Origin: a virus
Taxonomy: Duplodnaviria; Heunggongvirae; Uroviricota; Caudoviricetes
Virus record (IMG/VR): IMGVR_UViG_3300043418_000226
DNA: 64,000 nucleotides
Reading direction: 5' to 3' (one strand)
Below are positions 28,560 to 46,630 of this stretch, piece after piece; positions within the stretch are counted from its first letter, which is position 1, and each line of letters begins with the position of its first letter. Both the position numbers and the translations under genes were made by a program. Below the pieces are notes generated by a model, which was not told the origin of the DNA, ran no database searches, and saw nothing but the letters and a program-made list of their open reading frames with translations.

Positions 28560-28743
28560 TTATGTGATTGCCAGAAAATGGTCGGATAAAGATAACCGAT
28601 TAAATTGTTACACATTTCATACCACAGTGTTTTATGGTGATATGGAAGATGCCAAAAATACTTTAGAATTCATTAGAGGTCGAGCCGACAATCCACCGGA
28701 ACAATACTCCATTTTCAAAATCGACGAAACACCTATTACATAA
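28546..28743 (+). CDS. Hypothetical protein
   Basis: 65 aa ORF. Confidence 0.5.
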   Translation: MDEFNYVIARKWSDKDNRLNCYTFHTTVFYGDMEDAKNTLEFIRGRADNPPEQYSIFKIDETPIT

Positions 28744-29081
28744 TGTTACCGTTTAAATTTTTTCAAAATACAGACTCATCTTCTATTTTGGATGACTATC
28801 CTGGTTGGACATGGACTGAAACAGATATGATGACCAGACGAGTTCGTCGTAATCACGAAATAGTTGATATGAATTATTTTGCGGAGAGTTATCGTATACA
28901 TGGAATTATTAATTTCTTAAGATTATTTAATCGAACCGATAGCGTTTACATATATTCAATGGAATGTAACGGTATTAGAATTTTTCATGATAACAACGAA
29001 CAAGGATGGCCATGGGATATTACCACAGAATTAATTACATTTGAGGCAATTATTATCCCAAGGGAAAGATTTTTTCTATAA
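28743..29081 (+). CDS. FKF-tag family protein (paralog of 30633)
   Basis: MLPFKFFQ; no Lys after the tag; WPWDI motif. Confidence 0.7.
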   Translation: MLPFKFFQNTDSSSILDDYPGWTWTETDMMTRRVRRNHEIVDMNYFAESYRIHGIINFLRLFNRTDSVYIYSMECNGIRIFHDNNEQGWPWDITTELITFEAIIIPRERFFL

Positions 29082-29084
29082 TAT

Positions 29085-29115
29085 TTTGTAGTTTATAAAA
29101 TATTGGTTATATTTG
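29085..29115 (+). promoter_or_regulatory. Bacteroidota-type promoter
   Basis: TTTG 29085 and TATATTTG 29108-29115. Confidence 0.7.
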
Positions 29116-29137
29116 TATAAATTTTAATACATTTCCT

Positions 29138-30136
29138 ATGTCAAGATTAGACAAACTTAAAGAATTACATCCCGAGTTAGCTAAGGTTTCAGTGATGGAT
29201 ATAATCGCATCTGCCGACCCGTCTACTACATACAAATATTGTGACTTCTTAGTTAAGATGTTCAAAAGAAACTTCACCCATATCGAAAATGGTCAGGTGT
29301 TAACTTCATTTATATCGGGACAATTATTTGGTAATGAATTTGTCGAAACGTTAAACAAATTTGAAGATCACCACAAAGCCAAGAGAATTAGGATTAAAGA
29401 CATTTCTTTATATTCATCATATGATGACATTAAAGTCCAAGTTGAAGAGGCTGATGAAGTTGTTCGTATTAAAGAACTTGAGAAAGATGCTAATAAAATC
29501 TATAACGATTCAGAATGGTTAGTTCTTATTCCTAAGACATATGAATCGGCAATGCTGTATGCTAACAACACAAAGTGGTGCATCACACAAAAGAGTTATT
29601 GGAATGATTATAAAAAACATACGAGGATAATTTTCGTTATCAATAAAAAAACAGATGATAAGTTTGCAATATCAAAAAGATTTGACGATAAAGTAATCCA
29701 AGGTTGGGATGCTAGAGACATTGAGACTTCACCATTGTTATGGGATTTCAATGATAACATATGGAAAGTTCTCCGTAAAGAATTAAAGAAATCTAAAATT
29801 GAAATTCAATTGGATGAATTACCAAACGGAATGATTTTCGGAAAGTCTAATTTAATGATTCCGTACGAAGATGCAACTTTACAAGAATTAGAAAGTTTCT
29901 TTAAAAAATTCGGAGATTGTCTTGAGGAAGAATTTAAAAATAAAATTGTCACTAAAGGTAGAGAACTGAGAGAGTTAGATGAAATTGAGAAGAGGTCAAT
30001 TAAAAAGTTTAGTTCATTACCAACAAAGAAAATATTAGATGAAACAGATTTATATCGTTGGATTAATAATGGTGATTCTGATTTAAACATTGACGACATA
30101 TTAAAAACCTATTTAACAGGCAAGTATTATGAGTAG
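29138..30136 (+). CDS. Conserved large-phage protein, paralog of 24372-25457
   Basis: MSRLDKLK, SAMLYANNTKWCIT. Confidence 0.7.
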   Translation: MSRLDKLKELHPELAKVSVMDIIASADPSTTYKYCDFLVKMFKRNFTHIENGQVLTSFISGQLFGNEFVETLNKFEDHHKAKRIRIKDISLYSSYDDIKVQVEEADEVVRIKELEKDANKIYNDSEWLVLIPKTYESAMLYANNTKWCITQKSYWNDYKKHTRIIFVINKKTDDKFAISKRFDDKVIQGWDARDIETSPLLWDFNDNIWKVLRKELKKSKIEIQLDELPNGMIFGKSNLMIPYEDATLQELESFFKKFGDCLEEEFKNKIVTKGRELRELDEIEKRSIKKFSSLPTKKILDETDLYRWINNGDSDLNIDDILKTYLTGKYYE

Positions 30137-30632
30137 AATAACGCACAGACCAGATTGGTGGAGAATAGAATACCAACTTCTAAAAAATAAAATTATGAAC
30201 GATACTCCTAAACGTTTTAAAGACTGTCAACATAAATTAGAAAGACTCCACAGTATAATACCAAAAAACGAAACGTTTAGGGATGTTGCATTTGGTAACT
30301 TTATTGATAACACATATCGTAAAGATTCTGATTACATCAATTTTAAAAATCAACATAATAAACCGAGTGGTACCAGTTCGTTAGCGGGTTCTAATTCAAT
30401 TACAACTTCATTGAATAATTCTGTGACACCAATAGATACCACAATGGGAAGTGATACTGAATCGGTTAAACCAAAACACAAACATGGACACGTTGAGCCA
30501 TATGTTTTTTCAGTTGAGCCGGTTAAAGAACCATCGAAAATTAAAAGTAACGTTAAGGGATTGGTAAAAACAATTCTTAAACCACAAATTGATGCAGTGA
30601 ATACAGTGGTAAAATTAATAACGAACAAGTAG
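30129..30632 (+). CDS. Hypothetical protein
   Basis: 167 aa ORF. Confidence 0.55.
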   Translation: MSRITHRPDWWRIEYQLLKNKIMNDTPKRFKDCQHKLERLHSIIPKNETFRDVAFGNFIDNTYRKDSDYINFKNQHNKPSGTSSLAGSNSITTSLNNSVTPIDTTMGSDTESVKPKHKHGHVEPYVFSVEPVKEPSKIKSNVKGLVKTILKPQIDAVNTVVKLITNK

Positions 30633-30983
30633 GTGAAAAGATTTAAATTCTTGGAGGATAACGTCAATAGTGAATATGAAGAAGAATATTTAGGTTTTGA
30701 CGTTGGGGTTGAGGAACAAAACGTATATGAATACGGTGAATACTCCGCAAGTTGGATGTGGACAAGAGATATGATTATATCACAACCTTATGAAATTCAA
30801 ACTATAAATTGTTTGGGTATCGGTGATTTCTTATCACAATTTCCAAATCACTTTATTGTAGCGATAAATTCAATTTCATCAAATGGAGTTGAGGTAACTC
30901 GTGACATTAATCACGATAACATTTGGCCATGGGATATTCATAACGACCCATTAACAATAGAATACTTAGAATTTATACCTTAA
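30633..30983 (+). CDS. FKF-tag family protein
   Basis: GTG start, MKRFKFL; no Lys after the tag. Confidence 0.7.
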   Translation: MKRFKFLEDNVNSEYEEEYLGFDVGVEEQNVYEYGEYSASWMWTRDMIISQPYEIQTINCLGIGDFLSQFPNHFIVAINSISSNGVEVTRDINHDNIWPWDIHNDPLTIEYLEFIP

Positions 30984-30985
30984 TT

Positions 30986-44940: not shown

Positions 44941-44966
44941 AATTTGTCAATTAAACATAATAAGAT

Positions 44967-45176
44967 ATGAAACCATTTGTTGAACAAAGAATGTACACAC
45001 AGACCGAACAGATTGCAATTGTTCAACCAAACGAAACTGATAACGGTGTTGTACTATGTGTACAAGAAGTAACCGAATCAACCAAGGAGACAAGATTATA
45101 TCTGACCTTTGATGAGGTGGATGTGTTGTCCAAGTTATTACAACAAATGAAAGAACACCTTAAAGATGGGAAATAA
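44967..45176 (+). CDS. Hypothetical protein
   Basis: 69 aa ORF. Confidence 0.55.
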   Translation: MKPFVEQRMYTQTEQIAIVQPNETDNGVVLCVQEVTESTKETRLYLTFDEVDVLSKLLQQMKEHLKDGK

Positions 45177-45441
45177 ACAAATATGGAAATTTGAGATTAA
45201 AGAAGGTTCTATCAGAATGCCCATTGGTGCAAAGATATTATCTGTACAATCACAAAGAGAACGTGGAATGATTTGGGCATTGGTTGACCCCAATGCGGAA
45301 GATGAACCGAGAAGTTTTGCCGTAGTGGGAACAGGAGAATCTTTTGATGAAACTAATATGACCTATATTGGCACATACCAAGAATCACCATTTGTTTGGC
45401 ATTTATTTGAGTGGAAAGATAAACAACAAGACAATGGATAA
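45166..45441 (+). CDS. Conserved phage hypothetical protein
   Basis: MPIGAKILSVQ.Q, VVGTG and YIGTYQ..FVWHLFE motifs. Confidence 0.7.
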   Translation: MGNKQIWKFEIKEGSIRMPIGAKILSVQSQRERGMIWALVDPNAEDEPRSFAVVGTGESFDETNMTYIGTYQESPFVWHLFEWKDKQQDNG

Positions 45442-45697
45442 ACCATCATTCGTACCCACATCCAAGTTCCCTGATGATATGAGGATTAAGATTGGACCAA
45501 AGTATCCCGATAAGACAATGGAACTTCCAATTAAAGGTAAAGATATTGAGGGAATAACTTCCAATGGTGATAAGGCATATTGTTTTAGATGTAATTGTAA
45601 GGACGATAACTGTATGGAATGGAGATGCTCAATTACTGGTTTTCACCTAAACGTTAATATAGTAAAATGGGAATATCTGACTTCATTGAAGAACTAA
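45434..45697 (+). CDS. Hypothetical Cys-rich protein
   Basis: Start ATG 45434. Confidence 0.55.
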   Translation: MDKPSFVPTSKFPDDMRIKIGPKYPDKTMELPIKGKDIEGITSNGDKAYCFRCNCKDDNCMEWRCSITGFHLNVNIVKWEYLTSLKN

Positions 45698-45763
45698 ACC
45701 AACCAGATAGAGTGGAGACCCGTCATATCACGATGTCCGTGGATATGTATAATGAAATAAGAT

Positions 45764-46102
45764 ATGAAACCCTTTAAATTCTTCCAAAAGGAAATAAAAA
45801 AATTTAACGTATATGAGGAAATGGTCCTTGGTATATTGGATTACTGCGGTGGAAATAATATAAATCCCGTTGGATATTCACATCTCTTTACAATCACCAC
45901 ATTGGAGGGGGTACAACATAAACGTATTGTTATAAGGAATGTTACCAGATATAATTCATTTCCCCTTAGAGTTTATATTAATATAGAATATAGTCTCCAT
46001 CTAACACAGGATAATGAAGAATATACGATTACAAACCATATTCTTACTATAGATGAGGATGAATACATTAGACTAACAGAAGAATACCATGAGAGAATTT
46101 AA
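45764..46102 (+). CDS. FKF-tag family protein
   Basis: MKPFKFFQKE. Confidence 0.7.
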   Translation: MKPFKFFQKEIKKFNVYEEMVLGILDYCGGNNINPVGYSHLFTITTLEGVQHKRIVIRNVTRYNSFPLRVYINIEYSLHLTQDNEEYTITNHILTIDEDEYIRLTEEYHERI

Positions 46103-46304
46103 GTTTTTCCAAAAACCTGATCCACTGTGTTGGATAACGGCAATGGGACAAGAGATACCAATTTCTGAAATGGATGGTGGACATATGTACAATATCGTGG
46201 GTTTATTAAAGGATAATATAATTCCAAACCCATACCTTGGAAAGACCAAGCAGGAATGGTTGACCATATTCGGGGACGAGTTAAAAGAAAGATACCTAAG
46301 ATGA
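46089..46304 (+). CDS. FKF-tag family protein (paralog of 38105)
   Basis: MREFKFFQKP. Confidence 0.7.
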   Translation: MREFKFFQKPDPLCWITAMGQEIPISEMDGGHMYNIVGLLKDNIIPNPYLGKTKQEWLTIFGDELKERYLR

Positions 46305-46630
46305 GAGAATTTAAGTTTTTCCAGAAGAGGAAGGTACATGGGGTGGATGTGACTTTACTAAGGTTATATCACAATAGGATTCATCAGGTTTATCTTAATA
46401 GATATGATTTTTCTATTAATGAATTGAATAGGATGAATAATTTATATAATGAGACAAGAAATTTCATTTGGAACTCGGACATTGTTCACTTCGATGGGAT
46501 AAGGGAATATTACCGGACCTATGTTCATTTTATTTTACATGGAAATATTGTTGAGAACGCTGAGGATACTATAACGGACAGTCATCATGAAAGAATGACA
46601 CGAAATTCCGAGGAATCCATGTATACCTAA
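46301..46630 (+). CDS. FKF-tag family protein
   Basis: Start ATG 46301, MREFKFFQKRK; no Lys afterwards. Confidence 0.7.
   Translation: MREFKFFQKRKVHGVDVTLLRLYHNRIHQVYLNRYDFSINELNRMNNLYNETRNFIWNSDIVHFDGIREYYRTYVHFILHGNIVENAEDTITDSHHERMTRNSEESMYT

Follow-up and report, generated by a model that had tools for sequence, protein, structure and literature searches.

In the N-terminal leader carried by the internal proteins of bacteriophage T4 the processing residues are 8 and 10, and the genes for these proteins adjoin the tRNA region of the T4 map. The internal proteins are diverse defence proteins that have the leader alone in common (PMC3012670); this capsid-targeting sequence reads MKTYQEFIAE (PMC8442874), and targeting rests mainly on its residues 4 and 7 (PMC9026906). 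Judged by sequence, it is the closest known system to the subject of this report, a short N-terminal tag, M-x-x-(x)-F-K-F-(F/L), that begins 19 small open reading frames (ORFs) between positions 28743 and 46630 of IMG/VR virus record IMGVR_UViG_3300043418_000226. The stretch analysed, hereafter the window, comprises 64,000 nucleotides and forms the last 64 kb of a parent contig of 318,764 bp (JGI 3300048625 Ga0485287_000013). The bodies that follow the tag are mostly unrelated to one another and strongly depleted of lysine, and it is the linkage between tag and lysine purge that calls for an explanation.

An analogy with the T4 internal proteins, drawn in the first-pass annotation, holds in part. 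Both the T4 leader and the tag are N-terminal sequences of about 10 residues borne by unrelated, fast-evolving small accessory proteins of T4-type phage. In a set of 86 distinct tagged proteins, gathered from the window, from related metagenome contigs and from the IMG/VR lineages G002, G003, G005 and G007, FKF begins at residue 4 in 66, which places Phe at residue 4 and Phe or Leu at residue 7 where T4 has Tyr4 and Phe7; this is a likeness of sequence only. The Met-Lys start is a further point in common. On cleavage site, late timing and basic cargo the analogy fails: the tag is without the (L/I)-x-E cleavage site at residues 8-10, the tagged genes have early-type promoters and no late motif, and their products are acidic and lysine-purged rather than highly basic. 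Tagged members are also far more numerous, with 19 in 18 kb.

A second comparison is offered by lysine deserts, which are usually read as protection from lysine-directed conjugation. They have been discussed in connection with the ubiquitin systems of eukaryotes and with Actinobacteria and their phages, the latter being confounded by high GC content (PMC13696103, PMC10665810). Like the deserts of toxin A chains that translocate from the endoplasmic reticulum, of VHL/SOCS2-type receptors and of proposed Mycobacterium phage proteins, the tagged bodies have long lysine-free regions, keep their arginine and confine the remaining lysines to one end. The known examples, however, are eukaryotic or actinobacterial, whereas here the GC content is 33% (the value for the window), lysine is otherwise plentiful in the genome's proteins and the desert goes with a defined N-terminal tag; a tag-linked lysine desert in an AT-rich phage is undescribed in the published lysine-desert work. 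Encapsulin cargo-loading peptides and the leaders of ribosomally synthesised and post-translationally modified peptides (RiPPs) provide a looser parallel, in that one short recognition peptide likewise appears to secure common handling for many cargos. That said, encapsulin peptides mostly sit at the C-terminus and dock onto a shell of HK97 fold, RiPP leaders are longer than the tag and precede short cores, and neither would be expected to go with lysine-free cargo. The N-degrons read by ClpS have Phe, Leu, Trp or Tyr as first residue, and the tagged proteins start Met-Lys/Arg-x; exposing a Phe to ClpS would need a cut after Lys5, and such a cut is hypothetical.

All 19 starts listed in the first-pass annotation are present, and every one carries the motif. 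In six-frame translation of the window FKF[FL] occurs 26 times, 19 of them being the tagged N-termini, which all lie on the + strand. The DNA pattern ATG-N6-TTY-AAR-TTY has 18 matches against 0.59 expected, a number reached in none of 100 shuffles, so that the motif is far commoner than chance would give. Sixteen of the listed starts are among these 18 matches; the other three fall outside the pattern, one through its GTG start and two through having FKF at residue 5. Gene calls by the Joint Genome Institute (JGI) on the parent contig choose the identical start for 16 of the 19. Elsewhere in the window there is no other convincing tagged member. The tagged ORFs (lengths in amino acids, aa) and one possible variant are as follows.

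28743-29081, + strand: tagged ORF, 112 aa, MLPFKFFQN; lysine-free past residue 12; paralogue of 30633
30633-30983, + strand: tagged ORF, 116 aa, GTG start, (M)KRFKFLED; lysine-free past residue 12
30986-31264, + strand: tagged ORF, 92 aa, MVNNFKFFSK; least lysine-poor member, with 6 body lysines; orthologues in L003, L004, L009 and G002
31934-32341, + strand: tagged ORF, 135 aa, MKTFKFFSN; body segment PTGMIYYMEF resembles the capsid-protein N-arm
32399-32698, + strand: tagged ORF, 99 aa, MNMSFKFLNN; lysine-free past residue 12
38105-38335, + strand: tagged ORF, 76 aa, MEKFKFKFFQK; wide family (295 homologues, tagged and untagged); small alpha/beta body with flexible tail in the AlphaFold2 model
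38328-38642, + strand: tagged ORF, 104 aa, MREFKFFQR; Lys5 is its sole lysine
38629-39123, + strand: tagged ORF, 164 aa, MKQFKFLT; tag invariant in 8 homologues of 54-96% identity
39110-39334, + strand: tagged ORF, 74 aa, MKQFKFLSK; family relatives align weakly with capsid protein residues 525-546
39321-39692, + strand: tagged ORF, 123 aa, MKRFKFFES; lysine-free past residue 12
40376-40678, + strand: tagged ORF, 100 aa, MKDFKFLTN; body copies, without lysine, the C-terminal piece of a T4-type major capsid protein
42697-43128, + strand: tagged ORF, 143 aa, MKDFKFFQKEK
43125-43433, + strand: tagged ORF, 102 aa, MIDFKFFQKD; its paralogues are 43436, 43963 and 46301
43436-43750, + strand: tagged ORF, 104 aa, MKDFKFFSKD
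43737-43976, + strand: tagged ORF, 79 aa, MKSFKFLRS
43963-44388, + strand: tagged ORF, 141 aa, MKSFKFFQKE; tag, then a capsid N-arm-like segment (T4 gp23 Gol region), then the shared helical body
45764-46102, + strand: tagged ORF, 112 aa, MKPFKFFQKE
46089-46304, + strand: tagged ORF, 71 aa, MREFKFFQKP; paralogue of 38105
46301-46630, + strand: tagged ORF, 109 aa, MREFKFFQKRK; lysine-free past residue 12
42215-42409, + strand: possible variant member, 64 aa, MKLYKHEGKGF; lysine confined to the first 9 residues

The paralogue groups named at first reading (28743/30633; 38105/46089; 43125/43436/43963/46301) are reproduced by BLAST clustering, which divides the 19 ORFs into at least 11 families and so agrees with the description of the bodies as mostly unrelated. 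The tag had not been recognised from any described system, and wider searching leaves it so: none of the 19 ORFs matches a Pfam family, PHROGs yields just two weak matches, both to families of unknown function, megablast and tblastn of phage records with the tagged region give no match, and no paper containing the motif was found.

Conservation of the tag among homologues is clear from the 164-aa family of ORF 38629, in which MKQFKF is invariant down to about 55% identity. The contigs that carry these homologues (L003, L004 and L009) hold arrays of 10-13 tagged genes. The scan of related phages that had been proposed, made as an exact-pattern search of IMG/VR, adds G002 (UViG_3300033074_000580; 323,865 bp, 97% complete), its near-copy G004, G003, G005, where 10 genes are tagged, and G007, where 17 lie within 8 kb. 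All told, at least five further lineages of uncultured jumbo phages carry the tag. An IMG/VR scan with the 164-aa family returned no relatives, the nearest cultured relatives are tag-free (Bacteroides phage DAC16, with a helicase of 40% identity, and Flavobacterium phage immuto, with a capsid protein of about 40%), and the 484-kb record LR756508 has tag matches at background level only. About 25 proteins are common to G002 and the window, at 24-73% identity and in syntenic blocks, and the head genes of G002 (Gp23 capsid protein, S77 prohead protease, portal, acidic scaffold and terminase) mark it as T4-type. The phage of the window is accordingly described here, with the head genes read in this relative, as a probable uncultured 319-kb T4-type phage of Bacteroidota. 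Mobile elements also occur inside tagged arrays: a protein judged by eye to be like HNH-type homing endonucleases at 176719-177456 (- strand) of G002 and 3082-4041 of L004, and an IS605 OrfB/TnpB (Cas12f-like) gene at 6907-8247 of L003.

The loss of lysine from the tagged bodies was absent from the first-pass annotation, as were two features described below, the bodies derived from capsid protein and the stop codon embedded in the tag. Past residue 12, lysine makes up 1.64% of residues in the tagged ORFs of the window against 8.39% in its other ORFs; arginine (6.8% vs 3.8%) and histidine (3.9% vs 1.9%) are raised, cysteine (0.49% vs 1.41%) is lowered, and 7 of the 19 have no lysine at all beyond that point. 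GC content is equal in tagged and untagged genes and the depletion is limited to in-frame AAR (Mann-Whitney p = 1e-8); AAG is not favoured in the tagged bodies, whose net charge is negative. Untagged proteins of the same early operons have an ordinary lysine content, so the purge tracks the tag rather than timing or location. It is seen again in every relative; complete G002 has 205 small ORFs, and each of the four lowest in lysine bears the tag. Searching with a profile of the 38105/46089 family yields 295 homologues, and in the 150 best of these median lysine content is 3.3% in the 34 tagged and 9.8% in the 116 untagged members (p = 7e-9), in a comparison that is phylogenetically uncontrolled. 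The tree of this family, which is poorly supported, has the tag state switching at least 10 times.

The position of the remaining lysines is equally distinctive. Lysine accounts for 30% of residues 1-5, 13.5% of residues 6-10 and 9.5% of residues 11-15, and then for 1.4%, 0.8% and about 2%. This boundary at about residue 15 coincides with the end of the tail that is disordered in AlphaFold2 models (residues 1-16 or 1-10). The models, of the 38629 and 38105 families, have folded bodies of differing architecture; in the former residues 1-16 have a predicted local distance difference test score (pLDDT) below 50, and in the latter the first ten residues average 54. The sharp drop in lysine together with the low-confidence N-terminal tails suggests that the lysine-permissive zone is the flexible tail. 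A Foldseek comparison of the two models with solved folds gave no match at E <=0.001.

Within the tag itself much of the constraint lies on the peptide. The consensus of the 86 tags is M-(K/R)-(P/D/S)-F-K-F-(F/L)-(Q/T/R)-(K/N), followed by a Pro-containing stretch. Residue 5 is Lys in all 86, encoded by AAA or AAG, and Arg in none, even though the bodies favour Arg and an AGA codon here would preserve, as TAG, the stop codon embedded in the tag. Phe6 is encoded by TTT in 64 tags and TTC in 22, position 7 uses seven different Phe and Leu codons, and variant tags among homologues are conservative protein-level changes (YKFF, FKLL, YKFL). The synonymous variation that had been taken as a sign of selection on the peptide is therefore real at Lys5, Phe6 and position 7; the argument does not extend to the first Phe codon, which is near-fixed as TTT.

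Several tagged bodies duplicate parts of the major capsid protein, purged of their lysine. With the G002 capsid protein (Gp23) as reference, ORF 40376 aligns with residues 502-560 (E = 1.7e-8 pairwise, 3e-6 in phmmer; GVVYAPYVPATLTPTM against GYIYAPYVPLQLTPTM), and all 7 lysines of that source segment are substituted, leaving 0 in the copy. A tagged 75-aa ORF of G002 resembles the spine-helix region, residues 362-390 (E = 9e-8; Pfam Gp23 E = 7.5e-5). In the ORF 43963 family a segment like the N-arm (residues 71-100; T4 gp23 Gol region) stands right behind the tag, at an E of only about 1e-3, and in the family alignment it forms an insert between the tag and the body common to 46301, 43436 and 43125. 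By comparison, none of 240 untagged small ORFs matches the capsid protein at E <0.01. A sequence search of solved structures with two tagged members gave no capsid-protein match. Derivation of the tag itself from the capsid segment RDPYFPANK is unsupported, since two alignments differ in register. Three further proteins (P0021, P0028 and P0032) consist of the tag, a module like G002 177465 and a 38105-type module, each module occurring separately elsewhere, an arrangement that indicates shuffling of bodies behind the tag.

The timing of the tagged genes can be judged from their promoters. The pattern of Bacteroidota promoters, TTTG-N17-23-TAnnTTTG, has 27 sites in the window against 4.7 expected, in an orientation matching that of the genes, which are on the + strand until about 47 kb and on the - strand beyond. 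This enrichment suggests that the host belongs to the Bacteroidota and that its polymerase transcribes the genes. Host-type promoters precede tagged genes at 29085, 37302, 40695 and 44686, the last three being:

37302-37333, + strand: Bacteroidota-type promoter (TTTG-N-TAnnTTTG), ahead of the operon with tagged genes 38105-40678
40695-40726, + strand: Bacteroidota-type promoter, ahead of the operon with tagged genes 42697-44388
44686-44716, + strand: Bacteroidota-type promoter, ahead of a tRNA-like gene and tagged genes 45764-46630

The T4 late promoter is TATAAATA. Of the 68 sites that the octamer TATTTATA has in G002, 41 are followed 8-45 nt later by a start codon, against 7 of 68 in the opposite orientation, and the genes behind it include those for scaffold, protease, portal and terminase as well as large genes of tail type; we read it as the putative late promoter of the clade. 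The window has 2 such sites where 11 would be expected, at 2405-2412 and 16334-16341, ahead of a GIY-YIG gene (2452) and an ORF at 16354, and the tagged arrays of the window and its relatives have none. By this criterion of promoter and late motif the tagged genes are early. On the - strand, promoters (for example at 51795-63879) take a near-fixed extended form, TTTGGTATAAT...GTTATATCTTTG.

The best explanation for the linkage of purge to tag, for the sharp boundary at the end of the tail and for an invariant Lys5 in proteins whose other positions favour Arg is a lysine-acting reader common to the tagged proteins. The reading favoured here, tentatively and with a rough probability of 0.4, is that the tag is a peptide-level N-terminal handle and that the lysine-bearing tail is the only site permitted for a lysine-directed reaction by this reader. 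A flexible tail of about 15 residues, made up of M-(K/R)-x-F-K-F-(F/L), a short polar stretch rich in Lys, Asn and Gln and a Pro-containing linker, would have been fused onto many unrelated small early accessory proteins. A common partner, of phage or host, would recognise Phe-Lys-Phe-Phe and perform lysine-directed chemistry on the tail, whether by conjugating or acylating Lys5 and neighbouring residues or by cutting specifically at Lys. Since any accessible lysine would be open to this reaction, selection would swap body lysines for Arg or His, and the tail would remain the sole place for it to occur. It is thus a reader, its lysine-directed chemistry and some later fate of the cargo that we infer. 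The original proposal that the tag gives a diverse cargo one common fate gains partial support from a motif that beats chance, is conserved, forms a disordered tail and heads unrelated bodies. Two sorts of neighbour were set aside as the reader: the sole conserved untagged gene in the relatives' arrays resembles, by eye, an HNH-type homing endonuclease, and the GNAT-like and DUF6445-like neighbours in L003/L009 are both absent from the window.

Several points weigh against a lysine-acting reader. No reader or lysine-directed enzyme was identified among the scanned window proteins or beside the relatives' arrays, we know of no lysine-directed tagging system in Bacteroidota or their phages, and modification or cleavage at Lys5 is at present a proposal only. 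The tail carries several lysines, which fits an acceptor or a tail that is removed, not a pure docking motif. An independent-pairs test of tag against lysine found just 3 supported pairs and has no power, which leaves the family comparison above without phylogenetic control. There is also constraint at the level of nucleotides: TTT encodes the first Phe of 85 of the 86 tags where the background is about 76%, and in 47 of 86 (55%) the upstream ORF stops at the TAA within the tag's TT[T-AA]R, with an overlap of 14 nt. Seven of these embedded stops are in the window, and ATGA provides a second out-of-frame stop. The tag thus doubles as the stop of the preceding gene in tightly coupled arrays, and with the TTT bias this means that its conservation is partly nucleotide-level.

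Those same observations favour a signal at the RNA or DNA junction, such as a termination-reinitiation joint, the operator of a translational repressor or a joint for cassette recombination, with the peptide as by-product; all variation in the core is indeed compatible with the RNA pattern UUU-AAR-UUY-YUN. This explanation nonetheless seems very unlikely. The embedded stop does not explain the invariance of Lys5 or the purge of the bodies, and no junction signal would account for a purge confined to the in-frame codon and amino acid; the variants in homologues are conservative in amino acids; and 39 of the 86 tags have no upstream ORF using the stop. A +1 frameshift at NTT-TAA that would fuse neighbours was also set aside, since the base before TTT is mostly A, a poor fit to such a slip, and for 45% of tags the frame concerned holds no upstream ORF. 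A search of G002 for a RegA-type repressor gave no match, though its control was silent too. Nor does an economy of tRNA-Lys, in which Lys codons are avoided so that the proteins can still be made once a host anticodon nuclease has depleted that tRNA, fare well, even though tRNA-Lys is a known target of anti-T4 defence (PrrC) and the window has a full tRNA-repair kit with NAD-salvage genes. The most conserved codons of the tagged genes are those for Lys at positions 2 and 5, the bodies show no preference for AAG, and lysine makes up an ordinary 5.5-8% of the repair enzymes; the invariant Lys codons of the tag and the normal lysine of these enzymes largely refute the idea, which is the least probable of those considered.

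An alternative, in view of the likenesses to T4, is a diverged capsid-targeting sequence whose tail would dock on the prohead scaffolding core, so that an assortment of proteins, such as ones acting against host defences, would be packaged and injected with the DNA, the tail perhaps being removed. The lineage is T4-type, G002 having the head gene set and many genes in common with the window; Met-Lys at residues 1-2, the invariant aromatic at 4 and Phe or Leu at 7 are as in the T4 leader; diverse proteins with only the leader in common are what T4 itself packages (PMC3012670); T4 propeptides of 10-19 residues match the lysine-permissive tail of about 15; and some bodies are capsid protein pieces. 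The details are less accommodating. Among small proteins, [LI]xE occurs within residues 8-40 in 33% of those with the tag and 35% of those without, with no preferred position, and prohead-protease cleavage after the tag is rejected for want of enrichment of the motif; the G002 capsid protein, for its part, retains a LINE/A-type site. Host-type promoters stand upstream and the late motif is missing from all tagged arrays, the cargo is acidic and lysine-free where T4 internal proteins are highly basic, and packaging leaves the lysine purge unexplained. Moreover, G002 has a separate lysine-rich set with T4-like leaders ending in (L/I)-x-E. These leaders (MKLSDLITE, MKVSELNQIIE, MKFEEVLNE, MIKLLDILRE and MNNFIKQVIE), in proteins encoded at, for example, 152703-153014, 306019-307257, 121997-124039, 315865-316719 and 61752-62504, make their bearers candidates for the true head-internal proteins of the clade. 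Capsid targeting by the tag is thus possible but on balance unlikely.

Among the signals read by Lon and ClpX are short terminal motifs that are hydrophobic or basic, and the tag could be a degradation signal and nothing more, an exposed N-terminal aromatic cluster read by a host AAA+ protease of Lon or ClpXP type that would make early proteins, notably the capsid fragments, short-lived and gone before head assembly. The tail is exposed, disordered and Phe-rich, the genes are early and capsid-protein fragments would plausibly do harm late in infection; neither the purge nor a Lys5 that is never Arg is explained, however, and we regard the idea as improbable. Aromatic-cationic peptides of the K-F-F type bind membranes and self-assemble, and a flexible tail followed by a Pro-containing linker would suit a physical anchor that held the proteins at the inner membrane surface or zipped them into a common assembly. 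An anchor gives no reason to remove lysine yet keep arginine, and there is no hydrophobic helix, so that this too must be rated very unlikely, marginally more so than a junction signal.

A bolder form of the lysine-acting reader can also be imagined, although it is something of a long shot. Each lysine-free body would bind a different host target, and the tail would dock on one lysine-directed conjugation or degradation machine that acts on the bound target, the capsid-derived bodies serving as baits for capsid-sensing defences. The bodies of such an adaptor library would be lysine-free to escape their own reaction, the same reason for lacking lysine as may apply, by analogy, to eukaryotic ubiquitin-ligase receptors and their viral hijackers.

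The remaining genes of the + strand block give some idea of what the phage contends with. The block encodes a UvrD-type helicase, an RNA-repair set (HAD_SAK_2, CCA-adding enzyme, Thg1-like protein, RNA ligase with PHA02142 OB domain, metallophosphoesterase and RNase T-like exonuclease) and genes for salvage of nicotinamide adenine dinucleotide (NAD), namely NAMPT, a phosphoribosyl pyrophosphate (PRPP)-synthetase-like protein and NADAR. The RNA-repair and NAD-salvage genes are densely packed at 3445-12921 and 16858-21956 and suggest that the phage encounters tRNA-cutting and NAD-depleting defences. Two stretches, 35353-37304 and about 44720-44880, are without ORFs, richer in GC and downstream of a host-type promoter. 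Rfam finds two tRNA matches, at 35764-35885 and 36332-36441 (122 and 110 nt), that cover the entire 71-position model, where ARAGORN finds none; these would be tRNA-like genes with long inserts. G005 has a comparable tRNA-like pair between tagged arrays (L017 9587-10154), and a consistent link between tRNA-like genes and tagged arrays was rejected, adjacency being seen only in the window and G005. About 21 nt at the start of the first tagged gene (TAATGTTACCGTTTAAATTTT; 28741-28762, + strand) recur identically at 18305-18326 (- strand), antisense within the NAMPT gene and between unrelated flanks, which may be chance or a relic of recombination. A YunG-like gene (PF24591) borders the tagged arrays in all lineages examined (window 46764-47093, G002 175167-175577, L003 9716-9946, L004 4044-4379); the family is widespread, so its position may reflect synteny alone.

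If the favoured reading is true, the tag would be a compact and portable address label of seven residues, clade-wide in uncultured jumbo phages, that secures common handling for dozens of fast-evolving early proteins. The tag-linked desert would then give a first hint of lysine-directed protein chemistry in the conflict between phages and Bacteroidota, and, since the genome is rich in both AT and lysine, it escapes the GC confound attending the only other phage case in the literature. Should the adaptor reading prove true, the library would be a phage counterpart of viral ubiquitin-ligase hijacking. Early proteins made of lysine-purged pieces of the capsid protein are, in turn, candidate decoys against capsid-sensing immunity.

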